Shown: positions 15,261 to 48,234, counted from the first letter of the stretch. The stretch is 49,177 nucleotides of DNA from Gammaproteobacteria bacterium (GCA_038135915.1 JAYPYM010000001.1:1-49177); one strand, 5' to 3'. Notes: a model not told the origin generated them from the letters alone. Program-made: numbers and translations.

Positions 15261-15262
15261 AA

Positions 15263-16756: not shown

Positions 16757-16760
16757 TTTT

Positions 16761-16790: not shown

Positions 16791-16814
16791 TTCTATATAA
16801 GTATCAGTATTTCT

Positions 16815-18488: not shown

Positions 18489-18516
18489 AGAAGTCTAAAT
18501 TAAGCGGGGAAATAAA

Positions 18517-21560: not shown

Positions 21561-21566
21561 GTTCTT

Positions 21567-29093: not shown

Positions 29094-29384
29094 TCGTTAA
29101 CTCCAGTAAGTATGATATCAAACTTATCTATATTTGCTTATAGCTTTAGCCTACGGACCTAGACCTATTTTAATATCAATCACAAAACCGATATTATAAA
29201 TCAATATCCGAGTAATCGAACCTTCTTTGGGATTCAACCTACCCTTTCCTATAACCCCGAGTGACTGCTTCAAGATTGTAAAATATACAGACTCCCAAGC
29301 AATTATTGTCTATTGGGAAGTAGGCTAATAAAAGGTCAATGCCCTCCCCTCCTCCATACTGCTGGCATAGGTTATAATTAGAGG

Positions 29385-29696
29385 ATGAATGACACATTCG
29401 TAAAATCAATTTCAAAGTATATTTCCTCTGGGTGGCAAGGGGCGCTGAACCCCTACCCTCTGCTACTTTTCACGTATCCATTAGTTTTGATTTCGTGCGC
29501 AATCATATTGACTGCAACGACCTTAACAAAAATTAAAATTCTAACCGTGCTGACCGGATTAGTGTTGGTTGTTCCAGCAATTGCGTGGTGCAATATCTCA
29601 TTATGGAGATGCTCAGAAAACACCCATCCCTTATCTTCGTTTATTATCAAGGCTGCTATAGTTGCAGTTGTAATAAAGATGACGATCTTTGGATAG
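29385..29696 (+). CDS. Possible small 3-TM membrane protein
   Basis: 103-aa ORF with three hydrophobic segments. TATAAT lies 9 nt upstream of the ATG (possibly leaderless) but there is no properly spaced SD. A competing antisense ORF is present. Confidence 0.3.
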   Translation: MNDTFVKSISKYISSGWQGALNPYPLLLFTYPLVLISCAIILTATTLTKIKILTVLTGLVLVVPAIAWCNISLWRCSENTHPLSSFIIKAAIVAVVIKMTIFG

Positions 29697-29874
29697 GAAA
29701 CCATCAGTTCGTTTCTAATCTATTTCCGTAATCGAAGGTCTTCGAACCAAATGCGTGTAGATGTTTGTTTAAATTTTTGACCCTTTTCGACTTAGGTTCA
29801 TCAAAAATTCTGTGTATCCTAGGCGGACTGAACTAATTTTTTGAATACATATTATCAATCGGCGTACACCAAAA

Positions 29875-30166
29875 TATAGCTAGCTATATTTGATACCAAG
29901 CTTTTTATAGCTAGCTATACATCTATAACTTGCCAAACGATAGATAGCTATACACTGTATTTTGTTGATTTTCTTACATTTAATGTTATAGCTAGCTATA
30001 CATTCTAATAGGCTTAAGTTGATAGCTAGCTACACGTCGAGAAATATATAGCTAGCTATCTAACGCTCCCAGGACATTCCCAATATTTACTTATCAATTT
30101 ATTTGTATAGCTAGCTATTTTAGTTATAATGTAGCTAGCTATACATTTACGCATATAGCTAGCTAT
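29875..30166. repeat. Array of eight 14-bp palindromes TATAGCTAGCTATA (plus one half-site) upstream of parA; candidate centromere/operator
   Basis: Boxes start at 29875, 29906, 29987, 30021 (variant), 30047, 30106, 30131 (variant) and 30154, with a half-site near 29943. Spacing is irregular, 23-59 bp. Confidence 0.8.
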
Positions 30167-30189
30167 CACAAGCATCCAAGGAGATTAAT

Positions 30190-30903
30190 ATGACAGTAAT
30201 CGTCTTTGCCTCTAGTAAAGGTGGCGCAGGTAAAACTACTGCCTGCAGGCTGCTCGCAGGTGAGTTTGCGAGACAAGGGAAAAAGAAAAATATTCAAATA
30301 TCACTGATTGATGCTGACCCCAACCAGCACAGCGCAAAGTGGGCAAAAATGGATGGTTGCCCATCAAACATCAATCTGATCCAAAACTCTAGCGAGGAGA
30401 GCATACTAGACGATATTGATGATGCAGAAGAGAGCAGTGCTTTTGTTCTTGTTGATTTGGAAGGAACAGCGAGTATGACAGTTGCTCATGCGATTAGCCG
30501 AGCGGATTTAGTCATTGCAATGAGTCAACCATCAGAAGATGATGAAGATGAACTAATCAAAACCATTAAGCTAATACGAAGGCAAGAAAAGGCTCTAGGA
30601 CGCCCCATTCCTCATTCGGTTTTAATATCTAGAACTAATGCAGCGTTTTTAACAAGAATGCATAAAGCCATACTAAATGACATGAAAGAAAATGACGTAG
30701 ATGTATTTGAATGTACGCTAAACGAGCGCGCAGCGTTTAAAGCAATTCGTACTTATGGTGGAATTGTTCACGATTTAGACCCAAAACAGGTTTCAGGGGT
30801 TAAAAACGCCTCTATTAATGTCGAAAAATTCGCCGAAGAAGTAAAAAGAAAATTAAAAGCAAATATGGTATCAAATGAAGAAAGGAGTCTTGCTCATGCC
30901 TAG
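30190..30903 (+). CDS. parA: ParA/Soj-family partition ATPase (short, type Ib-like)
   Basis: 237 aa with the deviant Walker A SSKGGAGKTT at the extreme N-terminus and no N-terminal HTH. AAGGAG SD upstream. Confidence 0.9.
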   Translation: MTVIVFASSKGGAGKTTACRLLAGEFARQGKKKNIQISLIDADPNQHSAKWAKMDGCPSNINLIQNSSEESILDDIDDAEESSAFVLVDLEGTASMTVAHAISRADLVIAMSQPSEDDEDELIKTIKLIRRQEKALGRPIPHSVLISRTNAAFLTRMHKAILNDMKENDVDVFECTLNERAAFKAIRTYGGIVHDLDPKQVSGVKNASINVEKFAEEVKRKLKANMVSNEERSLAHA

Positions 30904-31258
30904 CACCAGAGAAGTTAAACACTTCATAGACGACGATATAGATCTTGAAGACATAATCAGCAAACCAAAAACCAGAAAAAGATCCAGTGTAGAGCGTGAA
31001 TTAATAGAAGAGGCTGCTCATGTCTCAAATTTCCCGAGTAGAGAGCCTGTTAAGAAAAAAATTAGAAAAAAAAGTCCTTACATTAACCAGAAAAACATAA
31101 AAATGCGTTTTGGTATGTCTGAATTGCTCGCAGACCTCACAAAACACCTAGGATTTTCAAGCGATCAAGAAACAATCGAAGTTGCATTAGGAGCATTGAT
31201 TGACAAAAAAGGGCTCACTTCAATTAAGGAACAATATTTAAATCTAATAAATAGCTAG
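30896..31258 (+). CDS. Small centromere-binding protein (ParG-like, C-terminal RHH-like)
   Basis: Follows parA. I prefer ATG 30896 (AAGGAG 8 nt upstream) over the track start at 30875. It has a basic disordered N-terminus and the C-terminal segment KMRFGMSELLADLTKHLGFSSDQETIEVALGALI. Confidence 0.6.
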   Translation: MPSTREVKHFIDDDIDLEDIISKPKTRKRSSVERELIEEAAHVSNFPSREPVKKKIRKKSPYINQKNIKMRFGMSELLADLTKHLGFSSDQETIEVALGALIDKKGLTSIKEQYLNLINS

Positions 31259-31286
31259 CTATACAAATATGAATATAGCTAGCTAT
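31251..31286. repeat. Two further copies of the 14-bp palindrome between the partition genes and repA
   Basis: ATAGCTAGCTATA at 31251-31263 overlaps the stop codon of the ParG-like gene. TATAGCTAGCTAT is at 31274-31286. Confidence 0.8.
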
Positions 31287-31318
31287 CTGGATAATTATCT
31301 TAATTAAGGGAATTTCTT

Positions 31319-32281
31319 ATGGAAAAATCTGATAAAGTGGCTGAAATTGCCACCAAAAAGCAGAAAAGGATAATTGAAGCTGTAAGCCAGGTCGACAATG
31401 AAAATGACCCGTCTATTACATTTAGCCACTCTACAATGTGTCAAACATCTCTACCATTTAAAAATATGGGAGATGAAAGAAAGTGGGTTAGCAAAAATGG
31501 GCTTTCAGTAATCATGTTAGAAGCTGGTAGCGTCCTAGATCCTGAGAGGGATGACTTTATTCAGCTAGGTTTACCATACGGCACAAAACCTAGGTTGATT
31601 TTACTCTACCTTAACAGGCAAGCAATTTTAACGGGCAGTCCAGAGATAGAAGTAGAAAATAGTCTCAGCGCTTTCATAAAAAGAATAGGTATTGAAAGTG
31701 CACCTAATGGCAGAGTATATCGACAAGTTAAAGATCAACTAGCAAGGCTAGTAGCCAGTAAAATCTATATAGGTAATAGAAATGAAGATGGGGGAACTCA
31801 TACTCAAAAAAGAGATATCGTAAGTGATATCAATATATTTTTAAACCATGAAAAAGGGAAAAAAACGATCTGGCCAAAGACAATTCGCTTGTCTGATGAA
31901 TATTTCGAAGCCCTAAGCTCTCATGCTGTACCACTAGATGAGAGAGCGCTTTACCTTCTTAAAGATAGCGCCTTGGAGCTTGATCTGTATTCAATGCTTT
32001 CTGAAAGGTTGCATAGAATCAAAGACGATGGGAAAGGGCAATTTATACCGTGGAAAGACTTATATCAGCAGTATGGAGGAGGGTATACGAAGATAAATAA
32101 ATTTAGGCAAAACTTTTTAATGCATTTAAAAAATGTTTACGCCGTATATCCTTCAGCAAAAATAGAGCATGAAAAAACAGATAAAGGCATGCCAAAAGGC
32201 CTTAGGTTGTTACATTCACCACCTCCAATTCAAAAGAAAAACATCGTTAGTATCACAAATGCCAGCAACAATAATAATTAG
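31319..32281 (+). CDS. repA: Replication initiator RepA (RPA/PF10134-like, from memory)
   Basis: 320 aa. FSHSTMCQTSLPFK...GLPYGTKPRLILLYLNRQAILTGSPEIEVENSLSAFIKRIG matches the conserved N-terminal blocks of plasmid RepA proteins of this type. Iterons lie directly downstream. Confidence 0.8.
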   Translation: MEKSDKVAEIATKKQKRIIEAVSQVDNENDPSITFSHSTMCQTSLPFKNMGDERKWVSKNGLSVIMLEAGSVLDPERDDFIQLGLPYGTKPRLILLYLNRQAILTGSPEIEVENSLSAFIKRIGIESAPNGRVYRQVKDQLARLVASKIYIGNRNEDGGTHTQKRDIVSDINIFLNHEKGKKTIWPKTIRLSDEYFEALSSHAVPLDERALYLLKDSALELDLYSMLSERLHRIKDDGKGQFIPWKDLYQQYGGGYTKINKFRQNFLMHLKNVYAVYPSAKIEHEKTDKGMPKGLRLLHSPPPIQKKNIVSITNASNNNN

Positions 32282-32305
32282 TGGCAAACACCATAATTCA
32301 CTTTT

Positions 32306-32666
32306 ACGGGCAATCGGGTACAGTTTTCAATCAACAAAGAATGAGTTAACGGGCAATCAGGTACACTTTTACAGGCGATTAGCTGAGCATCAACAGGCGG
32401 TCGAGGAGACCTCAACGGGCAATCAGGTACACTTCAACGGGCAATCGGGTACACTTCAACGGGCAATCAGGTACACTTTCACGGGCGATCGGGTACAGCT
32501 GAAACTCCCATAGTTAGGTTTTTAAACAGATTTTTTTGTGGATAACTTATTTATTCACAGGCAATCAGGTACAGTTTTACGGGTGATCGGGTACACTTTT
32601 ACGGGCATTTAGGTACAGTTTCACGGGCGATCGGGTGCAGTTTCACGGGCAATCAGGTACACAAAC
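32306..32666 (+). repeat. oriV iterons: about 11 copies of 22-bp ACGGGCAATC(A/G)GGTACA(C/G)TTT(T/C)
   Basis: Direct repeats start at 32306, 32349 and (degenerate) 32371. A phased tandem set is at 32415/32437/32459/32481 and a second at 32557/32579/32601/32623/32645, each with exact 22-bp periodicity. Confidence 0.85.
32537..32545. promoter_or_regulatory. Perfect DnaA box (TGTGGATAA = TTATCCACA) between the two iteron arrays
   Basis: Exact 9-mer. An AT-rich TATAACTATATAACTATAA tract follows at about 32668-32690, and three TGTGGAC motifs follow at about 32765-32830. Confidence 0.6.
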
Positions 32667-33109
32667 CTATATAACTATATAACTATAATTTCTATACCCC
32701 TGTAGTTAGAGGCATAATAACGTTAATAACGTGGACTAATCGTGGAAGAGAATCTTACACCCATTGTGGACGATGCTTCGCAACGTATGGATTTACTGTG
32801 GACGACCGCTTCGCGGCGTGTGGACAAAGTGTTAACAGCAAAAAACGCTGTTAACACTGTGACACACACTATCGACCACAGCAAACCCACACTTCGACCA
32901 CAAGCACCGAAACCAACAACAAATTTTAATATTAATAAATTTTATATCTATTGAGCTGTAGGGCGCTTGTGAGCTGTTTTAGACAGAACCAATCAAATTC
33001 CTCCCAGGCTAAGATTAAAAGCCTTTAAAACCAATTCTAGGGGCTCTGAAAGCGTCTCTTATCCAAGATAGCCTCTGATTATTAAATAACGATAAAAGTT
33101 GATTAGATC

Positions 33110-33144
33110 TTGACTACACCTTAGAGATTTCCCATAATGGGAAA
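33110..33144 (+). promoter_or_regulatory. higBA promoter with overlapping palindromic operator
   Basis: TTGACT (33110-33115), a 17-nt spacer, then CATAAT (33133-33138). The palindrome TTTCCCAT-A-ATGGGAAA (33128-33144) overlaps the -10. Confidence 0.6.
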
Positions 33145-33155
33145 AAGGAGTGGCT

Positions 33156-33473
33156 ATGCGTATAATTTCTAGAGGTACCCTTAGAGATTTTTGGGAAAAG
33201 AAAACTTTCTCTGACTCAGAACAGCCTTTAAAAGCTTGGTTATCTGAAGCTCAGAAAGCTAAATGGAATAATCCTCAGGATATTAAAAAAAAATATAGAA
33301 ATGCTAGTTTTGTTGCCAACAACAGAGTTGTATTCAATATTAAGGGGAATGACTATCGACTAGTTACCCAAATACAGTACGCAGCAAAAATCGTTTGGAT
33401 TAAGTTCATTGGTACACACAAAGAGTACGATGAAATCAATGTAGAAACAATTGATATGAGTAGAGGTAGTTAA
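33156..33473 (+). CDS. higB: HigB-family type II toxin (RelE-fold mRNA interferase)
   Basis: MRIISRGTLRDFWEK...PLKAWLSEAQKAKWNNPQDIKKKY...VFNIKGNDYRLVTQIQY...IWIKFIGTHKEYD closely follows the HigB_toxin family pattern. I place the start at ATG 33156 (AAGGAG 5 nt upstream). Confidence 0.9.
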   Translation: MRIISRGTLRDFWEKKTFSDSEQPLKAWLSEAQKAKWNNPQDIKKKYRNASFVANNRVVFNIKGNDYRLVTQIQYAAKIVWIKFIGTHKEYDEINVETIDMSRGS

Positions 33474-33475
33474 TT

Positions 33476-33853
33476 ATGAATATCAAACCTATTCGAAACA
33501 AGAAAGATTATAACCATGCACTATCTATGATCGAAAAGCTTTGGGACGCCGAGAAAGGTACTGAGGATTTCGATCATTTAGAAATTCTTTCTACTCTCAT
33601 AGACAATTACGAAACCCAGACTATTCGAGTTGATCTTCCAGATCCAATTCAAGCGATTTTATTTCGTATGGACCAAGAAGGGTTAGAAGACAAAGATATG
33701 GTGGAGTATTTTGGGTCTAGAAGCAAAGTTAGTGAAGTTTTGAATTATAAAAGAGGCTTGAGCATCAATATGATTAGAAGATTACACGAAGGCTTAGGAA
33801 TTAGTCCTGATGTTCTAATACAAGAATATCAACTAAAAAATGATGTGGCTTGA
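33476..33853 (+). CDS. higA: HigA-type HTH antitoxin
   Basis: 125 aa starting 2 nt after the higB stop. It has an N-terminal KPIRNKKDYNHALSMIEKLWDAEKGTEDFDHLEILSTLIDNYE block and a C-terminal HTH. Confidence 0.8.
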   Translation: MNIKPIRNKKDYNHALSMIEKLWDAEKGTEDFDHLEILSTLIDNYETQTIRVDLPDPIQAILFRMDQEGLEDKDMVEYFGSRSKVSEVLNYKRGLSINMIRRLHEGLGISPDVLIQEYQLKNDVA

Positions 33854-33872
33854 TGATAAGAATCTTAAAATT

Positions 33873-33968
33873 AAATCAATATAATCCTTGATTAAACTAA
33901 CCGTGCGAGTATAATTATCCATGTTGGTTAGGCATTCCGCCGAGCCGCTACTCCAGAGGGAGAAAAAA
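33873..33968 (+). promoter_or_regulatory. Repeated promoter/5'-UTR module, copy 1
   Basis: TTGATT (33888-33893), a 16-nt spacer, then TATAAT (33910-33915), followed by the conserved leader ...GGCATTCCGCCGAGCCGCTACTCCAGAGGGAGA and the ATG. AATCAA-N8-TTGATT overlaps the -35. Confidence 0.7.
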
Positions 33969-34355
33969 ATGGAAGAACTAATCTATTCATACAGCAGAAA
34001 ACAAGCAATTGAAGATGGCTTTCTAGTTGATGTATCTGAAGTTGCAAAGGAGGCTGGTTTTTTACACCCAGTTGCTTTAACTCATGCGGCCTATGAATCT
34101 TGCGTGGCATGGAACGAGACTGACAGCGAGAGAAAAAGATTACACCAAGATGAAAGTGGTCGATTATGGGACGTTATTTATATGGCAAGATTCAATGCCA
34201 AGCGTTCTAAATCAAGTCAGTTTATTTACGATCTTTTTTGTGTCCCTAAAAACGGTAATGAAACTAGCCCTCAAAGGATACGGCTGAAAGCCGTTTGTGG
34301 CCCAGGTGATACATTAGAGCCCGTTATAACAATTATGCTTGAAGGAGAAGACTAG
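33969..34355 (+). CDS. Conserved plasmid/ICE hypothetical (DUF6573-like, from memory)
   Basis: I place the start at ATG 33969 (MEELIYSYSRKQAIEDGFLVDVSEVAKEAGF...GRLWDVIYMA...KAVCGPGDTLEPVITIMLEGED), directly behind the GGGAGA SD. The sequence pattern is familiar from ICE and plasmid backbones. Confidence 0.65.
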   Translation: MEELIYSYSRKQAIEDGFLVDVSEVAKEAGFLHPVALTHAAYESCVAWNETDSERKRLHQDESGRLWDVIYMARFNAKRSKSSQFIYDLFCVPKNGNETSPQRIRLKAVCGPGDTLEPVITIMLEGED

Positions 34356-34360
34356 GATAC

Positions 34361-34389
34361 AAGTCAGCCAGTTAATCACTGGCTGACTT
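34361..34389 (+). other. Perfect 12-bp GC-containing hairpin without U-tract
   Basis: AAGTCAGCCAGT-TAATC-ACTGGCTGACTT is followed by AAAAAAG, so it is not a canonical terminator on either strand. Confidence 0.6.
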
Positions 34390-34405
34390 AAAAAAGTTGA
34401 ATGAA

Positions 34406-34503
34406 AAATCAAGATAAACCTTGATTAAACTAACCGTGCGATTATAATTATTCATGTTGGTCAGGCATTCCGCCGAGCCGCTACTCCAAAGGGAGAATTT
34501 AAA
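34406..34503 (+). promoter_or_regulatory. Repeated promoter/5'-UTR module, copy 2
   Basis: Only a few mismatches to copy 1 over about 90 nt by eye. TTGATT (34421-34426), a 16-nt spacer, then TATAAT (34443-34448). AATCAAG-N6-CTTGATT overlaps the -35. Confidence 0.7.
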
Positions 34504-34995
34504 ATGAACATTCAAGACTCTGCTAGCGTATTGGGCTTAACCGGAAAAATTTCACCAGCTTCGGTTAAGCTTGCATACAAAAAAGCTTGCTCAAAGTACC
34601 ACCCCGATCGAAATCCTGCCGGAACTGAAATGATGAAAGTAGTCAATGCTGCGTATGTGGTTCTTAAAAACTTTTCCGGTGATATTGATGAAGCAGAAGA
34701 GGGCTATGGAGATGCCTTGAATGCTGCACTCAATTCTGTAGTAGGGCTACAAGGTGTAAAAGTTGAGGTTTGTGGTGTTTGGGTTTGGGTAACAGGAGAT
34801 ACTAAGAAGCATAAAGATGCTCTAGGGAAAAATGGAGCTGGCTTTCATTATGCAAGTAAAAAAAAGGCATGGTATTATCGTCCCGCTGATTGGTCGAGTA
34901 AAAGTCGTGGTAATTGGTCACTCGAAAAAATTAGGAGTGAGTATGGAAGTAAGGTTGAAACATCCAGATTTCAAAAAAAATTAAAATCAGCATAA
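34504..34995 (+). CDS. J-domain (DnaJ-like) protein with an unrelated C-terminal domain
   Basis: 163 aa. LAYKKACSKYHPDRNP contains the HPD tripeptide of J-domains. The C-terminal half (VEVCGVWVWVTGDTKKHKDALGKNGAGFHYASKKKAWYYRP) is not DnaJ-like. Confidence 0.85.
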   Translation: MNIQDSASVLGLTGKISPASVKLAYKKACSKYHPDRNPAGTEMMKVVNAAYVVLKNFSGDIDEAEEGYGDALNAALNSVVGLQGVKVEVCGVWVWVTGDTKKHKDALGKNGAGFHYASKKKAWYYRPADWSSKSRGNWSLEKIRSEYGSKVETSRFQKKLKSA

Positions 34996-35000
34996 GGAGA

Positions 35001-35020
35001 GCAGAGGGGAACCCCTCTGC
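35001..35020 (+). other. GC-rich hairpin after the J-domain gene
   Basis: GCAGAGGGG-AA-CCCCTCTGC is followed by CATTTCAAAAAA, so the U-tract is weak or absent. Confidence 0.5.
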
Positions 35021-35031
35021 CATTTCAAAAA

Positions 35032-35604
35032 ATGGATTTAAAAGAAAAAATTAAGAAGGTGGTATGTTTTCTACCGTTATGGCGTTTGGATACTCGTAGT
35101 GATAAATGCATTAAATTAATTGGTCCTGAGCGCAGTAAAATTACTGCTAGGAAAGACGGCGAACGAGTAATTTTTTATGCTTGCATACCAGAGTCAAAAA
35201 ATAGAGCATTTCGTTCATGGTCGAGCTTTGACCAGGCGAGGAAAAAAGATTTTAAACCCATGATCTCCTGCGCATTATGCAGAAATGAACAGGCTATCGC
35301 GTTAGACTTAGAAAGGCGCTTAATTAAAAACTATTTGAGGTTTTATAGGATTTCTAAGCAAGAGCTAGAGGCTCATAACAAAAAAGTTGATGAGTTAGAA
35401 CTAGTAGAAACATTAGCCGCTAGAATTCTTAAAGGATCTAAATCTCACCAAAGAGGAGAGGGACAAAGAAAAATTTACTTTGATTCAGGAAATGTGATGA
35501 TTAGTACGTTTGAAGGTGGATGCATGAGATTTGAGGTAAATCTCAATGAATACGATAAAGGATTGAAACTAGCGGCATATCTTAAAGAGAATGCCTTAAT
35601 TTAA
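35032..35604 (+). CDS. Hypothetical protein
   Basis: 190-aa ORF in the same orientation as its neighbours. No motif recognised. Confidence 0.55.
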   Translation: MDLKEKIKKVVCFLPLWRLDTRSDKCIKLIGPERSKITARKDGERVIFYACIPESKNRAFRSWSSFDQARKKDFKPMISCALCRNEQAIALDLERRLIKNYLRFYRISKQELEAHNKKVDELELVETLAARILKGSKSHQRGEGQRKIYFDSGNVMISTFEGGCMRFEVNLNEYDKGLKLAAYLKENALI

Positions 35605-35610
35605 GCAAAA

Positions 35611-35657
35611 GGCTTGATCTTCATAGCTCAAGCCGATACTCCAGAGGGAGAGAAAAA
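35611..35657 (+). promoter_or_regulatory. Partial third copy of the conserved leader
   Basis: The hairpin GGCTTGA-N10-TCAAGCC is followed by GATACTCCAGAGGGAGAGAAAAAATG. The last roughly 25 nt match copies 1 and 2. Confidence 0.55.
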
Positions 35658-35715
35658 ATGATTGTATTATTGATGCCTAACCTAGGTGAAATAGAGGGTC
35701 GTATACCAAAGCGTT

Positions 35716-36087
35716 ATGCGGTTAAAAAAGCTAGCAAAAAAAGAGGGGTTTGGAGAATACATTGCAAATCCTCAGAGGTTGGAAATATTGGAAGAGAGCG
35801 AGATAAGAGAGAAGAGATATCTATTAATCAAAGCCTTTAGTTATTTCATTGATGTACCGCCAACAGATTCGTCGAAAACTTTAGTCGATAAAGCTTTGGA
35901 GTACGGATATATTGATTCTAGAAAGGCTTTGAGTGGTAATCGACTAAAAACCTGGGCACAGCAGAAAAAAGCGCCTGAATGGGCGTGTAGATCCGCTGCT
36001 CGGTATCTGTCTGATTCAGGGTATCAGCCCGAAACAGATGCCGAGAAAAATCTGCTCGAATACTACAAAGGTTTAGATGATGAATGA
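35716..36087 (+). CDS. Hypothetical protein (start uncertain; see frameshift finding)
   Basis: The 123-aa ORF has protein-like composition but no well-spaced SD. The strong SD and leader feed ATG 35658 in a different frame (60-codon ORF 35658-35840). Confidence 0.45.
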   Translation: MRLKKLAKKEGFGEYIANPQRLEILEESEIREKRYLLIKAFSYFIDVPPTDSSKTLVDKALEYGYIDSRKALSGNRLKTWAQQKKAPEWACRSAARYLSDSGYQPETDAEKNLLEYYKGLDDE

Positions 36088-36301
36088 TAAAACAGGTGCT
36101 GGCCGTCCGAAAATTCATAAAACGAAAAAAGAGTTAGAATCAGCTCAGAAAAGCTGGAATAAAAAGTACAAAGCGAAGAAGATAAGAATTGATATGTTGG
36201 TTGATCCTGATATTCATGAGCGTTGGACGAGTTATTTAGAGAAAAATGATGTGAAAAGAGAGGAGGCTTTGAGTAATCTTTTGAAAAAATCCGGTTTTTG
36301 A
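36077..36301 (+). CDS. Small basic hypothetical protein
   Basis: 74-aa ORF whose start overlaps the previous stop (ATGATGAATGA). It is Lys-rich. Confidence 0.45.
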   Translation: MMNDKTGAGRPKIHKTKKELESAQKSWNKKYKAKKIRIDMLVDPDIHERWTSYLEKNDVKREEALSNLLKKSGF

Positions 36302-36329
36302 TCTGAAACTCCAATTAACAACTAATGGA

Positions 36330-36776
36330 TTAAAGCCTCCCAAGATTTTTTTTGACCTTTCTTGCGTAATTGATATAAATATCCTGCTTTCTAATCAAGG
36401 TCCGACTTGTATAGGCTCCGGCGTGATAAGCACCTACTGCAGTCCAAGAATAACCATACCTAGATATTTCCTGAGATAAGATCCATGATCCAGCTTTAAT
36501 GGATACACAGGGGTTCCAAAGAGACTCAGGGTCAATTCCAATTACCTGTAATTTGGGAAACCACCACGGGTTGATCTGCATTAAACCTCTATCCTTGGTA
36601 GCAATATTCTCAGCTTTAGGATTCATATTGCTTTCAGTTATGGCTATTGCTCTCAATAAATCAGGAGAAATTCTGAATTCCTTTCCATACAAATCAAAAC
36701 AATGATCGAAAGAAAATGCATATTGAGATTGATAGGCAATCAGAAAGGATATTAATGAGAATTTAACGGTTGACAT
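36330..36776 (-). CDS. Lytic transglycosylase (SLT domain; P19/VirB1/F-orf169-like)
   Basis: 148 aa with a signal peptide. AIAITESNMNPKA...GLMQIN...AYHAG are SLT catalytic-domain motifs. Confidence 0.85.
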   Translation of the reverse strand: MSTVKFSLISFLIAYQSQYAFSFDHCFDLYGKEFRISPDLLRAIAITESNMNPKAENIATKDRGLMQINPWWFPKLQVIGIDPESLWNPCVSIKAGSWILSQEISRYGYSWTAVGAYHAGAYTSRTLIRKQDIYINYARKVKKNLGRL

Positions 36777-36838
36777 TCATTAACCACACATTACTATTGT
36801 ATTAATTCATACAAACTATTGTAAGGGGCATAACAAAG

Positions 36839-37084
36839 ATGTCAATACTAAGGAAGATAGAGAAAAGCAACTTAACGTCACGTAAGTTTAACCTTGATAA
36901 AGATCTCTCCAAAAAAATTGATGATACTAAGAGAAAAGCTGAATCTCTAAACCTAGAATTTCCTATTGATAAAATTGTCGAGAAGGCAATTGAGAAAGCA
37001 GTGAAGCAAGCATCAAAAGAGTTCGAATCTTTTGAAAAAGATTCTCAGCAAGAGAGCGACGTGATACCAAAGGAAAGCGCATAA
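36839..37084 (+). CDS. Small RHH-like protein (possible relaxosome/oriT accessory factor)
   Basis: 81 aa. RKFNLDKDLSKKIDDTKRKAESLNLEFPIDKIVEKAIEKAV has a strand-helix-helix pattern. It lies adjacent to the oriT candidate. Confidence 0.45.
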   Translation: MSILRKIEKSNLTSRKFNLDKDLSKKIDDTKRKAESLNLEFPIDKIVEKAIEKAVKQASKEFESFEKDSQQESDVIPKESA

Positions 37085-37340
37085 TTCTTTTAAATTATTG
37101 CGCCAATATTTTAAAAGAATTGAACAGTGAGAACAAGGATACCCCACAAAGTGGGGCCCCATATTTGAGAATGAAAAATATACTATTTTTCAGCACACCC
37201 TATGCACCAAGCGTGCGGGAGTGGAAACGCCTAAACAGTGGTGCTTTAAAGAAAAATTAAAGCAAAAACCAAAATGGCCCAAAAATGGGCCACATCAATA
37301 AAATCAAAAGGTTATAAGGGAAAGGGAGAATTCTGAAAAA
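37083..37340 (-). promoter_or_regulatory. Candidate oriT
   Basis: Intergenic region upstream of the relaxase operon. It contains a 39-nt near-perfect hairpin (37083-37121), CCCCAC-AAA-GTGGGG (37142-37156), TGGCCC-N6-GGGCCA (37275-37292), and a minus-strand hairpin plus GGGTGT/GCTG motif (complement of 37191-37216) resembling MOBF nic regions. Confidence 0.5.
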
Positions 37341-37658
37341 ATGCAGAGGATAAAGATTTCAGTCGAAGATGGGCTGTTTGAAGCGTTACGCAACGAAGCA
37401 AAATCAAGAGGGCTCACTCTTAGTAATCTCACATCCGAGTACTTTTTTGAAGGAATTAAAGCTAGAAAAGAGAAAAATTCAACCTACAAGTTTGTCAAAA
37501 ATCAACTCTATTTTGACTACCTAAATGTTGAAATTAACATACAAATTTTGAAGCATTTATGTAAAGAAAGTGACTTCGATTCGCTCATGAATCGAGTCAG
37601 AAATGAAGCAAAGATTGGATGGGAAGAAAACAAAAAAGCGATAGAAAATAAGGAATAG
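37341..37658 (+). CDS. RHH-type relaxosome accessory protein (TraY/TrwA-position)
   Basis: 105 aa. The N-terminal MQRIKISVEDGLFEALRNEAKSRGLTLSNLTSEYFFEGI has an RHH pattern. It lies immediately upstream of the relaxase. Confidence 0.55.
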   Translation: MQRIKISVEDGLFEALRNEAKSRGLTLSNLTSEYFFEGIKARKEKNSTYKFVKNQLYFDYLNVEINIQILKHLCKESDFDSLMNRVRNEAKIGWEENKKAIENKE

Positions 37659-37674
37659 TTGAGAGGATTCAAGG

Positions 37675-40512
37675 ATGGTAGCAACAATAAAAGCAATTCA
37701 AAGCTCGAGCGGTGCCAGCAAATATTTCTCACGAGAGGACGATTATTACTCAAAAGATACGCTAGATGGCTCTTATAGCGAGTGGTTTGGAAATGGCGCT
37801 AAATCTCTTGAATTGGAAGGAAAAATTGATGGCTCAGACCTTAAGAATCTACTAGATGGCAAGGTGAGTGATGATCAGCTTGGGAAGAAAGTTGAAGATA
37901 AAATCGTACACTCACCAGGATGGGACGTAACCTTTCAAGCCCCAAAAAGTGTATCTATAGCTGCATTGGTCTTTGACGATAAGGTAGCATTTGATGCTCA
38001 TCAAAATGCAGTTAAGACAGCGTTAACCTACTTAGAAAAAGAAATTCTAAATACAAGAATAAAGACTGGTGGTGAGTTAGAGAAACATAAAACACAATCC
38101 CTAGTTGCTGCGCTATATACGCACGAAACATCTAGGGCTCAAGACGCCCACCTGCATACACATTCTCTCATTATGAATGCCACTCAAGATATGTCTGGCA
38201 AGTGGCGTAGTGTAGAAAGTAAGCCTATTTATCATGCACAAAAGAAGCTAGGAATGGTGTATAGAATGGATTTGGCACAGCGTCTCCAGAAAGAAGGTAG
38301 GGCTATAGTGGCAACAGGTAATGAGGCAGATTTTGAGCTGAAGTATATACCAAAAAACCTAATTGAAGATCATTCAAAAAGGTCTAAACAGATTGAAGAA
38401 AAGCTTGCAGAAATTTCACTAGATCGTAGCAATGCAACAGCTGCTCAGAAAGAAATCATTAATCTCGAGACTCGGGAAAAGAAAGAGAGGGTATCAAGAA
38501 AACAGTTAAGAGACAGATGGAAATCAGAAGCAAAAAAATATAATTTTGATTTAGAAAAATACTTAGATACATCAGAAAAGTTGTCAAATACAGAAATTAA
38601 TGAGCTTAAAACAACAACTTTGTCAGAAGTTATATCCTCTATTCAATCAATGAAATCACGATTTACGGAAGATGATATTGTCAAGAAAATGTCAATATTT
38701 GGTGTTGGTTTAGTTTCACTACCTGAGATACAAACCATGATTCAGCAGAATAACGAACTAATTCCTACAGAAACTAAGACTTTTGATGCACAAGGTAAGG
38801 CAAAAACTTTCGTGAAAGTTGCTGGTTATACGACGAAAGAAGCACAGGAAATAGAGAAAAGTGTGATACACAAGGAGTGGCTAGGTAGAGGTAAATTCAA
38901 AGATTTTTTTAGCGATAGGTCCGCTAAAAAAATCGTAAAAAAAGCAGAGAAAGTATCTAATGATAAGGGTTTTAATTGGACAGATTCTCAGAAAAAAGCG
39001 ACATTCCAACTGCTAACAAATAGAGATATGGTAGTTGGAATACAGGGGTATGCAGGGACGGCGAAGACCAACACAGTTGTTGCTACATTTGCCGCAGCAA
39101 TGGAAAGTAATGGTTATAAGGTTCGAGGGATGGCACCAACATCTAGTGCGGCAATTACATTAGAAAGTGCAGGCATAGAAAGTCCTGGTACTGTACACAG
39201 CTTCATTAATTCTGATGATAACTCTAAAGAAAAGGAGGTATGGATTGTCGATGAGGCATCGCTGCTAGGAGCCAAAATAATGGAAAAATTGATCTCAAAA
39301 GCTGAGAATTCTAAGGCTAGATTAGTACTGGTTGGTGATACAAAACAACATCAAAGTATTGAGTTTGGATCAATGTTTCAGTTGATGCAAGACTCAGGTA
39401 TGACGACCTATACACTAGATGAAATTGTCCGACAAAAAATGGAGGCTGAGCGAGAAAAAGTATATGGGGTCATCAAAGGTCAGTTGGGCAGTGTTTTAGA
39501 TAAAATGGATAAAGATCAACAGATTTTTGAGGATGAGCATGATGTAAATAGAGTTGGTTATATCGTAGATAAGTATGTCGGAATGGATGCTAATGATAGA
39601 GAAAATACACTAATTATTGACCCTTCTAGAGAAGGAAAACAGAAACTAACAGATGAAATTCAGGGGCGATTGGCAATAGAAAATAAGATTAAAAATCCAG
39701 TTGATACCACCAATCTAAAAGAAAAAGCTAAAGTTAGAAGCGGCGATGGATTTGAGTTAAATATTACCGATATTGATAAAAAATTCTCATTTGTCTATGA
39801 GAAAGGCGAGTGGGTTGTCTTTAACAGGCGACATAAAAGTAGAGGCGTGGAAAGGGGGGAATACTACAAAGTTATAGACTCAGATAGAGAAAGCGGCATT
39901 GTAAAAATACAGGATAATCAGGGTAAGATGATCTCATTTGAGCCGAAAAAATGGGGGCACAATAATAAGATATACCAGGAAGAAAAGATCCGTCTTTACG
40001 AAGGCGATTTGGTAAGTATTACGAAGAATAACCCGCAGGACAAGATATACAATGGCCTAAGCGGAAGAGTTGTAGAAACGAATGATAGTTACATAATATT
40101 TGAATCAAAAAAGGGAAAGCATAAGGTTAATTTTCATGAAATTGATAAGAAACACTTTGCTCTGAGTTATGTAAAAACTACAGTTAGCGCGCAAGGCGAT
40201 ACTAAACAAAATGCAATCTATCATATTGAATCAAACCGAGTAAATTTAACAAATAAGGCAGCATTCTACGTTGGATTATCTAGGGCAACGGACAGTACGA
40301 TTGTAGTTACAGATAACAAAGATAAAGCGCTGAAATCACTTAAACAGAATGATGGTTCTAATGAGTCTGCAATGAATAAAGATGACCTATCTAAATTCAA
40401 TAAAGAGCTATCAAGCACGATAAAGAATGAAATAAACGAAACAAAAAGGGCGGATAAAGAGATAATCAAAAACACTTACAGAGAGCATAAAGTGCCAGCT
40501 CTAAGTCTTTAA
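37675..40512 (+). CDS. traI: MOBF-family relaxase-helicase (TrwC/TraI)
   Basis: 945 aa. The N-terminus has ASKYFSREDDYY (catalytic Tyr region) and HETSRAQDAHLHTHSLIMN (3-His motif). The helicase part has GYAGTAKT, WIVDEASL and YVGLSRA. Confidence 0.9.
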   Translation: MVATIKAIQSSSGASKYFSREDDYYSKDTLDGSYSEWFGNGAKSLELEGKIDGSDLKNLLDGKVSDDQLGKKVEDKIVHSPGWDVTFQAPKSVSIAALVFDDKVAFDAHQNAVKTALTYLEKEILNTRIKTGGELEKHKTQSLVAALYTHETSRAQDAHLHTHSLIMNATQDMSGKWRSVESKPIYHAQKKLGMVYRMDLAQRLQKEGRAIVATGNEADFELKYIPKNLIEDHSKRSKQIEEKLAEISLDRSNATAAQKEIINLETREKKERVSRKQLRDRWKSEAKKYNFDLEKYLDTSEKLSNTEINELKTTTLSEVISSIQSMKSRFTEDDIVKKMSIFGVGLVSLPEIQTMIQQNNELIPTETKTFDAQGKAKTFVKVAGYTTKEAQEIEKSVIHKEWLGRGKFKDFFSDRSAKKIVKKAEKVSNDKGFNWTDSQKKATFQLLTNRDMVVGIQGYAGTAKTNTVVATFAAAMESNGYKVRGMAPTSSAAITLESAGIESPGTVHSFINSDDNSKEKEVWIVDEASLLGAKIMEKLISKAENSKARLVLVGDTKQHQSIEFGSMFQLMQDSGMTTYTLDEIVRQKMEAEREKVYGVIKGQLGSVLDKMDKDQQIFEDEHDVNRVGYIVDKYVGMDANDRENTLIIDPSREGKQKLTDEIQGRLAIENKIKNPVDTTNLKEKAKVRSGDGFELNITDIDKKFSFVYEKGEWVVFNRRHKSRGVERGEYYKVIDSDRESGIVKIQDNQGKMISFEPKKWGHNNKIYQEEKIRLYEGDLVSITKNNPQDKIYNGLSGRVVETNDSYIIFESKKGKHKVNFHEIDKKHFALSYVKTTVSAQGDTKQNAIYHIESNRVNLTNKAAFYVGLSRATDSTIVVTDNKDKALKSLKQNDGSNESAMNKDDLSKFNKELSSTIKNEINETKRADKEIIKNTYREHKVPALSL

Positions 40513-40525
40513 AAGGAGATGAAAA

Positions 40526-42379
40526 ATGAAATCAAGTGTGCTTGGAGATATTACGAGAGGAGGGCAGATATTCCTGCACTCAGTACGTATGGCAGTGCAG
40601 GTCATCAAATCATTTTCGATTGCAGTTTTTGCAATATCAATATTGTTTTTTTTATTCTACTTCTTCAATAAAACAGAGAATTATGATCGGTATTTGTTCG
40701 TGAAATGGGCTCAATCGTCATTCACATATCATGTGGTTAATAAGCCGGAAACTACTCTAAATTTTGAATATAGCGATGGTTCGGAAACCAAGGCTTCAGC
40801 AAGAACTATCGTAAGTAATCCTGGTATTTTGAAGAGTGTCAACCAAACTATTGATATAGCTTATAAAGGGTTAGCCAGGAGTATTATTCTTTTTTTAGTA
40901 TGTTTTGTAGCGATCTTTTTTTACGGATATAAGATAGGATATGACATAAGAAAGCCAAAGTTTTTGCGCGGAAATAAGAAGACAGATAAAAAGGGGCTGA
41001 TTCAATTACTCAGAAGAAAACGTGTAAAAAGCGACATAAGTATAGGTGATATGCCTCTGGTTAAAGACAGTGAAACATCTCACATTTTGATTTCAGGTGC
41101 GCCCGGAACTGGTAAGTCAACCGCGATTAAAGATCTCCTAAATCAGATTAGAAAAAGAGGGGATCGAGCGATTGTATATTCAAGCTCAGAAGAATTTGTT
41201 GAAAGCTTTTATGATGAAAAAAAAGATGTCTTGTTAAACCCAATGGACAAAAGGTGTCCAAAGTGGCATATCTGGGCTGAAGCTGAGACCAGCGCTGATT
41301 TCGACAACATGGCTGAATCCTTAATACCCGATACCCAGGGGGGATCGGACCCCTTTTGGAATAAGGCAGCGAGGACATTGTTTTCGTCTGTTGCAGCAAG
41401 AATGTTTACGTTAAAGCAGTTTATGATCGATCAGTTGTTGAAGGATCTGCTAACAACAAAATTAGAAACAGTAGCAAGGCTTATTGAAGGAACTGAAGCT
41501 GAAGCGATTGTTTCGGGTGATGTTGAAAAAGTCGCTCTCTCTGTCAGAGCGACTTTAGCAGCTTATATTAGATCACTGAAATATCTGAAGTTGACTGGTA
41601 AAGCATTTTCGATATCAGATTGGATCAAGAAAGATGATCATGATGGTTGGATATTCTTAGGAATACCAAAAAAGCAAATATCATCTTTAAGGCCACTTAT
41701 AACGCTCTGGTTAGATACAGCTGCAAGTGCAATCCTTTCCCTCAACAGAAAAAGGGATCGAAGGATTTGGATTATCGTTGATGAGCTGCCCACACTTAAT
41801 AAATTGCATAGCTTATCCATGCTGATGGCGGAAGGCAGAAAGTACGGAGCTTGCTGTGTAATTGGATTTCAGTCTTTTTCTCAGCTTGTCTCGATATATG
41901 GATTAAACGGTGCACAATCCATGGCTGGTTATTGTTCTACCTGGCTTCTGTTTAGAACAAATGAAGCTAGCTTTGCTGATTGGGCTTCCAAATCACTTGG
42001 TGCTACAGAATCACTTGAGGGAAATGAAGGTTACTCGTTAGGAGCTAACGAAATTCGAGATGGCGTCACATTGAGTTCAGATAGAAAAACAAGACAAATA
42101 GTTGTCCCCGGAGAACTCATAGCACTACCAGATTTAGCTGGCTTCTTAAAGCTTCCAGGATTTCCAGTAGCAGAGGTTGAGTTGAAATATCGACAGTTTA
42201 AACAGAAAGCAGAGGGATTCATACCAGACAACTTTGAAGATACGAGCATGAAAAAATTTGAAGACAATATTCAGGAAAATGTAGATGATGAAGAAGATGA
42301 GGTATTACCCAAAGAGAAAGAACGATCTGTAGATGAGAGAAAGAAAGAGCCTAAAACCCCTGAAATGATTCCAGCCTGA
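40526..42379 (+). CDS. traD: Type IV coupling protein TraD
   Basis: 617 aa with two N-terminal TM segments, Walker A GAPGTGKST, Walker B-like WIIVDELP and an acidic C-terminal tail. Confidence 0.9.
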   Translation: MKSSVLGDITRGGQIFLHSVRMAVQVIKSFSIAVFAISILFFLFYFFNKTENYDRYLFVKWAQSSFTYHVVNKPETTLNFEYSDGSETKASARTIVSNPGILKSVNQTIDIAYKGLARSIILFLVCFVAIFFYGYKIGYDIRKPKFLRGNKKTDKKGLIQLLRRKRVKSDISIGDMPLVKDSETSHILISGAPGTGKSTAIKDLLNQIRKRGDRAIVYSSSEEFVESFYDEKKDVLLNPMDKRCPKWHIWAEAETSADFDNMAESLIPDTQGGSDPFWNKAARTLFSSVAARMFTLKQFMIDQLLKDLLTTKLETVARLIEGTEAEAIVSGDVEKVALSVRATLAAYIRSLKYLKLTGKAFSISDWIKKDDHDGWIFLGIPKKQISSLRPLITLWLDTAASAILSLNRKRDRRIWIIVDELPTLNKLHSLSMLMAEGRKYGACCVIGFQSFSQLVSIYGLNGAQSMAGYCSTWLLFRTNEASFADWASKSLGATESLEGNEGYSLGANEIRDGVTLSSDRKTRQIVVPGELIALPDLAGFLKLPGFPVAEVELKYRQFKQKAEGFIPDNFEDTSMKKFEDNIQENVDDEEDEVLPKEKERSVDERKKEPKTPEMIPA

Positions 42380-46580: not shown

Positions 46581-46638
46581 CTTTCAAGCCTGTTTTAGTT
46601 CTTTGCTCATACGTGATTGATTTCGAATGCAGTATTCA

Positions 46639-47466: not shown

Positions 47467-47513
47467 CTAGGTACACCAGTCATATAATTTCGTTCCAGTT
47501 AATCAATCAGCTC

Positions 47514-48149: not shown

Positions 48150-48234
48150 AATTCCCTCAATATTAGATAATTTTTAAATATCATTATTGCATCTTCACAG
48201 CAGCGACGACAAGATCACTGCTGTGAGGCAACTA

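Follow-up and report, generated by a model that had tools for sequence, protein, structure and literature searches.

The 49,177-nt stretch analysed here (the window; Gammaproteobacteria bacterium, GCA_038135915.1 JAYPYM010000001.1:1-49177) contains at 33873-36301 a set of small same-strand genes, g1 to g6, served by a repeated promoter-leader module. Other plasmids carry the module in front of different genes, and sequence comparison thus identifies it as a genuine shared control element. The explanation that we favor with moderate confidence is that the gene set represents a repressor-controlled regulon of double-stranded-DNA promoters, similar to the CUP/ArdK system, in which g6 likely acts as the autorepressor. 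Leading regions decide the survival of a plasmid during the first minutes after its arrival in a new host, and apart from the F, IncI, IncN and IncW groups little is known about how they are controlled. The window offers a testable pairing of a 9-nt box with a 74-aa protein, and it supplies a defined RNA leader for a set of genes, headed by one for a J-domain protein, that is widespread but unstudied.

The repeated module and its surroundings

The repeat finder identified a 92-nt direct repeat of 93% identity (33873-33964 versus 34406-34497), so that the two near-identical modules of about 90 nt described in the initial annotation were recovered. The edges of the module are sharp, as the 80 nt located 5' of both copies are just 59% alike and the downstream genes are unrelated. 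The promoter scan placed TTGATT, a 16-nt spacer and TATAAT in both full copies (33888-33915 and 34421-34448, matching 10 of the 12 consensus positions), and the overlapping inverted repeat AATCAA-N8-TTGATT has two sites in the window, only in the copies at 33873 and 34406, both as previously described. The 21-nt sequence AGCCGNTACTCCARAGGGAGA occurs three times on the plus strand (33943, 34476 and 35631), in comparison to an expectation of 0.00 in shuffled sequences even with up to three mismatches. Its third occurrence belongs to the final 21 to 27 nt of the module, which form partial copy 3, where the hairpin at 35611-35634 substitutes for the module's 5' hairpin; the earlier observation that the gene at 35658 keeps the end of the leader behind a different hairpin was thus reproduced. 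Each full copy is best read as a predicted ordinary double-stranded sigma-70 promoter, and copy 2 probably drives an operon extending from the J-domain gene to g6. The coordinates of all features are presented in Table 1.

Table 1. Features of the module, the gene set and the neighboring transfer region, with positions counted from the first nucleotide of the window
Feature	Position	Strand	Remarks
higB-higA toxin-antitoxin pair	33150-33853	+	own promoter and palindromic operator TTCCCATAATGGGAA; upstream of gene set
Module copy 1	33873-33964	+	5' of DUF6573 gene; 95 bits with covariance model R1
Copy 1 A-rich inverted repeat	33874-33893	+	
Copy 1 -35 TTGATT	33888-33893	+	promoter scan
Copy 1 spacer box CCGTGCGA	33901-33908	+	
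Copy 1 -10 TATAAT	33910-33915	+	promoter scan
Copy 1 predicted transcription start	~33921-33923	+	
Copy 1 5' hairpin	33925-33947	+	outer stem UGGUU/AGCCG, inner stem GGC/GCC
Copy 1 SD-sequestering hairpin	CUCC 33951-33954 / GGAG 33959-33962	+	
g1, DUF6573 protein, 128 aa	33969-34355	+	match 2.7e-25
12-bp hairpin between g1 and module copy 2	34361-34389	+	not followed by a T run
Module copy 2	34406-34497	+	5' of J-domain gene; 102 bits with R1
Copy 2 parts	-35 34421-34426; box 34434-34441; -10 34443-34448	+	
Copy 2 hairpins	5' hairpin 34458-34480; SD hairpin 34484-34487 / 34492-34495	+	
g2, J-domain protein, 163 aa	34504-34995	+	HPD motif; 1.2e-09
g3, 190 aa, no assigned function	35032-35604	+	conserved downstream partner of J gene
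Hairpin GGCUUGA...UCAAGCC	35611-35634	+	3' of stop codon of 190-aa gene; z = -2.2
Partial module copy 3	35631-35657	+	translation-initiation part only, AGCCGAUACUCCAGAGGGAGAGAAAAA; no promoter; fronts 35658 ORF
g4, small ORF, 60 aa	35658-35840	+	first 40 residues conserved in L014 (11960-12097)
g5, listed as 123 aa	35716-36087	+	only residues 26-118 conserved (L014 8282-8587)
g6, 74-aa basic protein	36077-36301	+	N-terminal GRP motif, helical C-terminal half
Lytic transglycosylase, SLT domain	36330-36776	-	between gene set and candidate oriT
Candidate oriT	37085-37340	-	256-nt gap, six predicted hairpins; fold z = -6.0
Ribbon-helix-helix accessory protein	37341-37658	+	relaxosome operon 37341-42379
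TrwC/MOBF relaxase-helicase	37675-40512	+	8.7e-79
TrwB-type coupling protein	40526-42379	+	relaxosome operon

All six same-strand ORFs are present as previously listed, two of them (35658-35840 and 35716-36087) overlapping in different frames. The comparison with a metagenomic plasmid, L014, suggests a genuine small gene for g4 and a later start than listed for g5, possibly at TTG 35788. A sequencing frameshift joining the two ORFs is unlikely, as L014 has a separate g4 homologue and carries its g5 homologue elsewhere. The 144-aa form of g1 starting at ATG 33921, given by public annotation, was rejected because homologues start with MEELIY and the SD precedes ATG 33969. The structure predicted for the DUF6573 protein is confident (pLDDT 93), it found no fold match in PDB at E <= 0.001, and no mention of DUF6573 was found in the literature. 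The hairpin that follows g1 possibly serves as transcript end or stabilizer for this gene. The C-terminal domain of the J-domain protein is conserved and has no assigned function, and in L014, L015/L016 and L017 the J gene is followed by a homologue of g3, with a weak partial match in L028. Homologues of the J protein were found on 2,127 PLSDB plasmids, mostly conjugative and including the IncX3 plasmid pABC218-NDM; the family is thus carried by more than 2,000 sequenced plasmids, IncX3 types among them. Searches of the six genes with PADLOC, PHROG and NCBIfam returned no function beyond the J domain, and the suggestion that the products are anti-defence candidates was not borne out by the family searches, in which no product matched any anti-defence or defence family.

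The gene set is located on the oriT-distal side of the TrwC/MOBF relaxase operon. Among possible nic sites, the repeated ACTATTGTA (36793 and 36815), which resembles a W-type nic motif on the plus strand, was rejected since its two copies fall on the -10 hexamers of the SLT and orf81 promoters, which are divergent. On the minus strand, the best nic candidate, judged by eye against the R388 and F nic regions, consists of GCAC-GCTTG-GTGC (37216-37204) followed by ATAGGGTGT, with nic putatively at 37195/37194. Transcription of the relaxase gene in MOBF plasmids proceeds away from oriT, and this gene is the last to enter (PMC3737333); judged by this arrangement, the gene set occupies the expected MOBF leading-region position. 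For the same reason the minus strand is likely the transferred strand and the template of the gene set, in accordance with the geometry proposed in the initial annotation; this orientation has been reported for leading-region genes (PMC11541004). Homologues of the gene set also adjoin oriT in other plasmids, with J-domain and DUF6573 homologues being the first genes beside MOBF relaxase operons (L015/L016 and L005). The homologous genes in L005 and L015 point away from oriT, so the cluster is not bound to the orientation that it has in the window.

Recurrence, leader fold and candidate regulator

Full modules or box promoters were found before other genes in the plasmids L014, L028 and L033/L035. 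In L014, which is unrelated to the window and whose J protein is only 61% identical to that of the window, full modules precede the J gene (9913-10003) and a 103-aa gene (11110-11195), a third promoter with the box inverted in its spacer (about 8579-8679) is followed by a 151-aa gene and the g6 homologue, and the short 3' piece fronts the g4 homologue, as it does in the window. Two box promoters were found in L028 and one, before higBA, in L033/L035. The module was shown to be conserved above the coding-sequence level in other plasmids, copy 2 of the window being 82% identical to copy A of L014, in comparison to 65% for the adjacent J gene and 48% for the upstream flank. Copies within one plasmid are 92% alike in comparison to 76% to 82% between plasmids. 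On three sites outside its build, the covariance model R1 scored 31.4, 30.0 and 25.5 bits (E = 9e-4, 2e-3 and 0.016). The gene order is g1, J, g3, g4, g5, g6 in the window and g5, x, g6, J, g3, y, z, g4, w in L014, and the modules front different genes in the two plasmids. Megablast of 33000-37700 against PLSDB gave no match, and sensitive blastn of the module gave chance fragments only. An exact leader pattern gave 3 matches in GTDB genomes, 4 in JGI metagenomes and 2 in IMG/VR, all of which were intra-coding and attributable to chance; the pattern is too strict, as L014 has GGCCG for AGCCG of the window.

The promoter core, TTGATT-N8-CCGTGCGA-N-TATAAT-N6-TGTTGGTY, was found, among the loci compared here, only in those also encoding a g6 homologue, and the -35 and -10 hexamers are kept in L014, L028 and L033. 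The G+C-rich box in the promoter spacer is the conserved operator candidate. Two other candidates were rejected: the upstream AATCAA/TTGATT inverted repeat as operator, which is specific to the window and not conserved in L014, L028 and L033, and HigA as regulator of the module, its palindrome being located at the higB promoter and unrelated to the module.

The box stands beside the -10 hexamer in four of the four g6-encoding lineages; no other plasmid locus compared has it there. One of these loci, L033, was reached through g6 alone and was later seen to carry the box, and in the window, L014 and L028 a box promoter precedes g6. Such a pattern points to g6 as a likely candidate autorepressor of the module. 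The co-occurrence could also come from shared descent and not from function, because the four g6 lineages are mutually closest and most of the loci are short fragments. IncX3, in which g6 was not found, shares the TGTTGGT start, so part of the module is older than its link with g6. The full HMMER search showed that the g6 family has 3 representatives among 1.8 billion proteins, and the word-indexed search returned only the query itself. No match to g6, and no recognizable DNA-binding family, was obtained with Pfam, NCBIfam and PDB sequences, and none of the six products had a match naming ArdK in Pfam, NCBIfam and PHROG. The AlphaFold model of g6, which is of low confidence (pLDDT 70), contains three helices and no ribbon-helix-helix strand.

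The leader consists of a 5' hairpin and a small hairpin, CUCC-ARAG-GGAG, which buries the ribosome-binding site. Covariation was analyzed with five sequences from three lineages, nearly all both-side changes coming from L028. The results showed that 98.3% of the cells pair in comparison to 27% to 53% when the partners were slid, and that there are 3 both-side pair changes in comparison to 0.6 in shuffles, with 1 of 500 shuffles reaching 3. These compensatory changes support both leader hairpins at the sequence level. In the fourth copy of L014, AUCC/GGAU replaces CUCC/GGAG, and the leaders of IncX3, L028 and L032 differ in sequence and share the same two-hairpin fold plan. Folding of whole leaders gave z-scores of only -0.6 to -2.2. 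No other piece is shared as widely as the SD hairpin, with three occurrences in the window, four in L014 and one in L017. Conservation and compensatory changes in the predicted fold back the occlusion of the SD by CUCC/GGAG that had been put forward at the start. The A(N)GGA site for a CsrA-type protein, put forward with it, failed, as the leaders of L028 and IncX3 lack the motif. CsrA regulation of the leader was accordingly rejected, with AGGGA located in the 3' arm of the stem rather than in the loop, and a coarse motif scan of the window found no CsrA-like ORF. The best matches of 32400-37700 to Rfam 15 were far below the gathering scores, and none was in the leaders in sense orientation. 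In copy 2 of the window, L014A, L028, IncX3 and L032, an upstream ORF runs up to the J start codon and ends there in ATGA; the spacers of the window and L014 are exactly one codon apart in length. The start positions of these ORFs vary, some being GTG or TTG, no ribosome site precedes them, and their peptides are not conserved; the ORF is missing in Vibrio, Shewanella and two of the three Legionella leaders.

Comparison with known systems and the proposed mechanism

The CUP/ArdK system of IncN plasmids consists of same-orientation operons in the leading/maintenance region, each under a conserved repeat which is both a promoter and the site for one plasmid-encoded, self-controlling repressor (PMC6289460, PMC5371602), and the CUP repeats also serve as recombination substrates (PMC5371602). 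The module had initially been taken for a shared, undescribed element; shared it is, as it recurs in other plasmids, but its logic is the same as that of CUP/ArdK, and by this analogy the module is another instance of a kind of element already described in IncN plasmids. The likeness is in layout and logic, with two full copies and one partial copy of the repeat on the plus strand at 33873-35657, beside oriT. The two differ in that g6 comes from its own tiny family, that the repeat of the window continues across a structured 5' leader as far as the ribosome-binding site and its 3' piece serves again by itself within an operon, and that a J-domain protein, DUF6573 and proteins of no assigned function take the place of the CUP cargo ArdA/ArdB.

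The Frpo/ssi elements of F and IncI1 share with the module the leading-region location, the transferred strand as template, and repeated promoter elements before several small operons (PMC11541004, PMC12672017); however, Frpo elements are large hairpins which rebuild -35 and -10 in single-stranded DNA, whereas the module resembles a normal duplex promoter. Another comparison is with the cluster of IncX3 and related plasmids annotated with a 'DnaJ domain-containing protein', whose J protein is homologous (46% identity) and whose geometry is the same, with a replication gene followed by the J gene, small same-strand ORFs, and a relaxase accessory gene and relaxase. It also follows the same leader plan (TATAAT, 5 nt, TGTTGGTT, a nested 5' hairpin and the SD in a stem), although its leader was not detected by R1 at E <= 1, it has neither the box nor g6, the locus examined has one leader copy, and its relaxase is MOBP while that of the window is MOBF. 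In KorA/KorB of IncP and ArdK/StbA/KorA of R388, one small repressor acts on operators in many promoters, which gives a burst upon entry and then shut-off. Their operators are short sites in comparison to the 90-nt promoter-to-ribosome-site unit of the window, and the two are likened by logic only.

According to the repressor-controlled reading, copy 1 would drive the DUF6573 gene, and copy 2 the operon of the J gene, g3, g4, g5 and g6. The transcript, starting from about TGTTGG, would fold the nested 5' hairpin and then the 4-bp hairpin over the ribosome-binding site, the former probably stabilizing the mRNA and the latter limiting or timing translation, and the last piece of the leader may also be used alone inside the operon, such as copy 3 before 35658. 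We infer that g6 binds the box and turns the promoters off. Entry into a new cell and second-strand synthesis would then yield repressor-free promoters and a burst of expression, which may be closed as g6, the final gene of the operon, accumulates. The J-domain protein would most plausibly recruit the host DnaK for an establishment step, for example the activation of an iteron-type Rep protein. A bolder version is possible but doubtful, namely that the module and g6 form a previously undescribed autoregulated establishment regulon, in which the structured leader and the overlapping upstream ORF time translation after entry, and the core cargo, the J protein with g3, is a new class of establishment factor commandeering the recipient DnaK. 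If the J protein helps establishment, it would be a new target against plasmid spread; if not, the gene set would be another case of a single promoter-leader cassette reused to co-regulate and shuffle early genes.

Competing explanations

With the transferred strand inferred to be the template, and the orientation being that of leading-region genes (PMC11541004), the module might act as a single-strand promoter of Frpo/ssi type, firing from the incoming strand before its complement is made. The folds make this highly improbable. The minus-strand fold of copy 1 has a z-score of -0.10, with -35 and -10 outside the stem, and the fold signal of copy 2 stems from the unrelated hairpin at 34361-34389. 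Screens for Frpo-type promoters use about -75 kcal/mol per 300 nt (PMC12672017), in comparison to about -16 kcal/mol for 300-nt windows at copy 1 and -34 to -40 kcal/mol at copy 2; no minus-strand 300-nt window in 29000-37400 reaches -75 kcal/mol, the best (-55) being in the replication origin. Since the fold of the module is unlike that of a single-strand promoter, the template-strand geometry comes with no sign of its actual use.

Control might instead be mainly post-transcriptional, with a minor role for the promoter and a buried ribosome site opened by translation of the upstream ORF, whose TGA overlaps the ATG, by a CsrA-like protein or by a small RNA. The wide sharing of the SD hairpin, its promoterless use before g4, and the five upstream ORFs ending at the J start codon would fit such control. 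We nevertheless consider it unlikely, given the inconsistent starts, missing ribosome sites, lack of conservation and patchy occurrence of these ORFs, the absence of A(N)GGA in L028 and IncX3 and of a CsrA-like ORF in the coarse scan, the weakness of a 4-bp stem along with the modest leader z-scores, and a search of both strands which found no sequence complementary to the leader elsewhere in the window. The modules could also be mainly recombination joints, short identical stretches at which homologous recombination would shuffle or duplicate small genes or exchange them among plasmids, with constitutive promoters and no dedicated regulator. The differences between the window and L014 in gene order and in the genes fronted by modules point in this direction, as do the 92% identity within a plasmid in comparison to 76% to 82% between plasmids, which gene conversion or recent copying would give, and the documented recombination of CUP repeats in IncN2 plasmids (PMC5371602). 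As the main role this is rather improbable, for it leaves unexplained the compensatory changes in the two hairpins, the conservation of the spacer box in either orientation and its co-occurrence with g6. The roles in recombination and in regulation are compatible with each other.

A repeated promoter and leader unit

Two of the six small plus-strand ORFs (g1 to g6), encoding a DUF6573 protein (g1) and a J-domain protein (g2), are each preceded by one copy of a 92-nt direct repeat with 93% identity between copies, and the last 21-27 nt of this module occur a third time ahead of g4, as the initial annotation had described; no copy, full or partial, is expected by chance. The similarity between the two full copies drops abruptly at either edge and the genes 3' of them are unrelated. 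A promoter scan found TTGATT, a 16-nt spacer and TATAAT in both. The upstream inverted repeat of the window, stressed in the same annotation, is not kept in the other lineages.

Recurrence of the module upstream of unrelated cargo had been put forward as a check, and it was found. Exact-pattern scans of large collections failed, and relatives were therefore reached through the encoded proteins. In L014, a metagenomic plasmid whose J protein is 61% identical to that of the window, the full promoter and leader occur twice, ahead of the J gene and of an unrelated 103-aa gene, and the short piece CUCCAAAGGGAG lies 5' of the g4 homologue. In L017, another plasmid locus, the short 3' piece precedes the J gene. 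R1, a covariance model of five copies, detected no further sites in the window and matched three sites outside its training set, at L014 8579-8679, L028 374-435 and L033 960-1054, with E-values of 9e-4 to 0.016. Window copy 2 and the L014 copy before the J gene share 82% identity, in comparison to 65% for the adjoining J gene and 48% for the upstream flank; because this non-coding unit is better conserved than its neighbouring gene, the sequence comparison indicates that the module is under selection.

Leader structure and a candidate regulator

The three leaders of the window adopt one predicted fold, consisting of a first hairpin, 3-4 free bases and CUCC-NNNN-GGAG holding the Shine-Dalgarno sequence, with unexceptional fold energies (z -0.6 to -2.2). 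In an alignment of five leaders, 98.3% of cells pair, in comparison to 27-53% when the partners are slid, and three pairs show changes on both sides, in comparison to 0.6 in shuffles, although the sample is small and most of these changes come from one lineage. The outer stem varies as UGGUU/AGCCG in copy 1, UGGUC/GGCCG in L014 and UGACC/GGUCA in L028, and the Shine-Dalgarno hairpin as CUCC/GGAG, AUCC/GGAU and CCAA/UUGG. The covariation thus favours the proposed occlusion of the ribosome site by CUCC/GGAG, and given the sample we regard the two-hairpin structure as supported, not proven. The leader matched no Rfam family. A 5'-terminal hairpin also starts the J genes of Legionella, Vibrio and the L032 locus. 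In the IncX3 leader, TATAAT is followed after 5 nt by TGTTGGTT, then by a nested hairpin whose sequence differs and by a stem holding the Shine-Dalgarno sequence.

In the window, in L014 (9960-10004) and in L021 (about 6954-7004), a short upstream ORF extends across the leader. Before J genes (window copy 2, L014, L028, IncX3 and L032) its TGA overlaps the ATG as ATGA, and before non-J genes (window copy 1 and the second L014 copy) it shares the reading frame of the main ORF. DUF6573 is given in a long 144-aa form in the window's public annotation.

The promoter core reads TTGATT-N8-(A)CCGTGCGA-N-TATAAT-N6-TGTTGGTY(A/G)GG, in which CCGTGCGA is a G+C-rich 8-mer conserved within the spacer in either orientation and looks like a protein-binding site. 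Given a near-consensus promoter with a spacer of 16 nt, a factor bound at this box should repress rather than activate. A candidate for such a factor is g6, the last ORF of the set, which has homologues in L014 and L028, both upstream of the J module, and only three relatives among 1.8 billion representatives in a full HMMER search. The box promoter lies upstream of g6 in the window, in L014 and in L028, which carries two box promoters and a J protein 63% identical to that of the window; in L014 this is a further promoter, situated ahead of a 151-aa gene and the g6 homologue, with the box inverted in the spacer; behind it come a 5' hairpin of its own and AUCC-AAAG-GGAU. In L033/L035, loci reached through the best g6 relative, the box promoter stands ahead of higBA. 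Among the 38 sources compared (37 loci and the window), CCGTGCGA beside a -10 hexamer was confined to the four g6 lineages, each of which has it, a co-occurrence to be read with the lineages being mutually related and many of the loci short. The position of g6 downstream of a box promoter would give negative autoregulation. The g6 product matched no DNA-binding family, and its structure model is of low confidence.

Known systems and probable order of entry

Among known systems, the CUP/ArdK regulon of IncN plasmids comes closest. In it, several operons of the same orientation lie in the leading or maintenance region, and each begins with a CUP repeat that holds a promoter together with a site for ArdK; the ArdK repressor controls its own gene, and CUP repeats recombine (PMC6289460, PMC5371602). 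The module set would work on the same plan, but differs in candidate regulator (g6), in cargo and probably in sequence, and its repeat, unlike CUP, runs through a structured leader, the 3' piece of which is reused alone. Of the undescribed shared control element proposed earlier, the shared element is real, with relatives in L014, L028 and L033, whereas its kind was already known. Its interest would rise if the g6-box pairing and an establishment role of the J-domain protein were confirmed. Other plasmids have different repeated elements of their own: L015 carries the ribosome-site hairpin CCTGAGTTATTAGGA ahead of three or more genes (about 9985, 11130 and 12345), L005 carries operator-like TGCAAATATTATT and GGTATAAT before two genes (5700-5745 and 6180-6235), and in the Legionella plasmids L020 (6947, 9169) and L022 (2950, 4430) the J gene and one further gene are each preceded by CATAAT/CATACT/TATACT-N5-TGTTCACTTAGGAACA. 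The repeated use of a promoter-leader unit seems a general trait of J/DUF6573 clusters.

No other non-coding stretch near the relaxase is as structured as the 256-nt gap before the ribbon-helix-helix gene (z = -6.0), and this gap holds minus-strand hairpin-plus-9-nt motifs which we take to resemble the R388 and F nic regions. As the relaxase of MOBF plasmids lies in the lagging region and is transcribed away from oriT (PMC3737333), this gap and the relaxase rule together suggest that the minus strand is probably the one transferred. The SLT gene would then enter first, followed by g6 back to g1, with the minus strand as their template. Comparative data agree with early entry of such genes: the J-g3 pair lies directly beside a MOBF relaxase operon in L015/L016, in L005 DUF6573 comes second from such an operon, J and DUF6573 adjoin on a Legionella fallonii MOBF plasmid, a cluster headed by a J gene on a Legionella antarctica plasmid includes an anti-restriction gene, and on IncX3 plasmids the J gene and seven small ORFs are directed at the relaxase genes, the run lying between replication and relaxase genes in the example examined. 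Gene orientation is not fixed, however, because the homologous genes in L005 and L015 point away from oriT. The module was also considered as a single-strand promoter of the Frpo type and rejected, since the folded minus strand leaves -35 and -10 unpaired (z = -0.10 around copy 1); no 300-nt minus-strand window between 29000 and 37400 reached the published threshold of -75 kcal/mol (PMC12672017). Without such a fold, module expression most likely waits for second-strand synthesis.

Gene products and the surrounding element

The DUF6573 model is confident (pLDDT 93) and no structural relative was found in the PDB; the family occurs within small-ORF runs on PromA-type (pSB102), Xanthomonas, Streptomyces and other plasmids. 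The J protein belongs to a large, well conserved family; its HPD motif is intact, and its C-terminal domain, also conserved, is common to a phage family of unknown function. Its nearest PLSDB relatives are on Legionella plasmids (~51% identity). Homologues occur on 2,127 PLSDB plasmids (1,026 Escherichia, 529 Klebsiella), 1,868 of them typed conjugative; in the IncX3 example the J gene heads seven small unnamed ORFs. The literature search found no functional study of this J-domain protein. Behind the J gene, the 190-aa g3 is present in four lineages, and a fifth gave a weak match to a fragment. The g4 and g5 ORFs overlap in different frames. In L014 the g4 homologue stands apart, overlapped at its 3' side by an unrelated ORF, and the g5 homologue is located elsewhere; on this ground g4 behaves like a small leader gene before varying partners. 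The anti-defence role suggested for these genes is unsupported, because none of the six products matches a defence or anti-defence family, and a survey of leading-region genes has no DnaJ in its main text and only a five-member DnaJ family in its supplement (PMC11541004). From what J domains do, the J protein may instead be a chaperone-recruiting establishment factor.

Coordinates of features in the window
Feature	Position	Strand	Remarks
F-type mating-pair apparatus	826-17219	minus	TraH, TraU, TraC, TrbI-like protein
Cargo block	17838-23489		LuxR-type response regulator, methyltransferase, TonB-dependent receptor, 7TMR-DISM histidine kinase
GmrSD_N-domain protein, 368 aa	25137-26243	minus	PADLOC NsnA model match, 2.2e-50
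RepA_C replication gene	31319-32281		ParA-type gene also in window
22-bp iteron arrays	32348-32661; 32730-32900		6.8 and 4.9 copies; downstream of repA
higBA	33150-33853		
Module copies 1 and 2	33873-33964; 34406-34497	plus	
Upstream ORFs in leaders	33921-33971; 34454-34507	plus	
Partial module copy	35631-35657	plus	
g4/g5	35658-36087	plus	
g6	36077-36301	plus	
SLT transglycosylase	36330-36776	minus	
Divergent promoters	36770-36845	both	SLT (minus), TTGACA-16-TACAAT; 81-aa ORF (plus), TTGACA-16-TACTAT
TrwC/MOBF relaxase	37675-40512		Neighbours: 81-aa ORF, ribbon-helix-helix gene, TrwB-type coupling protein, nuclease
Right end	45192-49098		G+C 0.42-0.44; sodium:dicarboxylate symporter, glucosaminidase, Ysc84-like and OmpA-family proteins

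The window is the entire public contig (49,177 bp, ~38% G+C), and no terminal overlap that would show it to be circular was found. A search of PLSDB gave no close DNA-level relative of the region, and no PLSDB plasmid matches the relaxase at more than 37% identity. Next to the iterons (consensus ACGGGCAATCAGGTACACTT), on their 3' side, come an AT-rich stretch and a large, imperfect palindrome with TGTGGAC repeats resembling DnaA boxes, and folding of the minus strand at 32640-33010 gives z = -6.1; this region probably serves as the replication origin and perhaps as a single-strand initiation site too. The GmrSD_N-domain protein is likely a defence gene carried by the element. The right end, where G+C is raised, may be a chromosomal flank of an integrated element or cargo. 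The divergent, near-consensus promoters of SLT and the 81-aa ORF share ACTATTGTA, a possible operator that is repeated (36793 and 36815).
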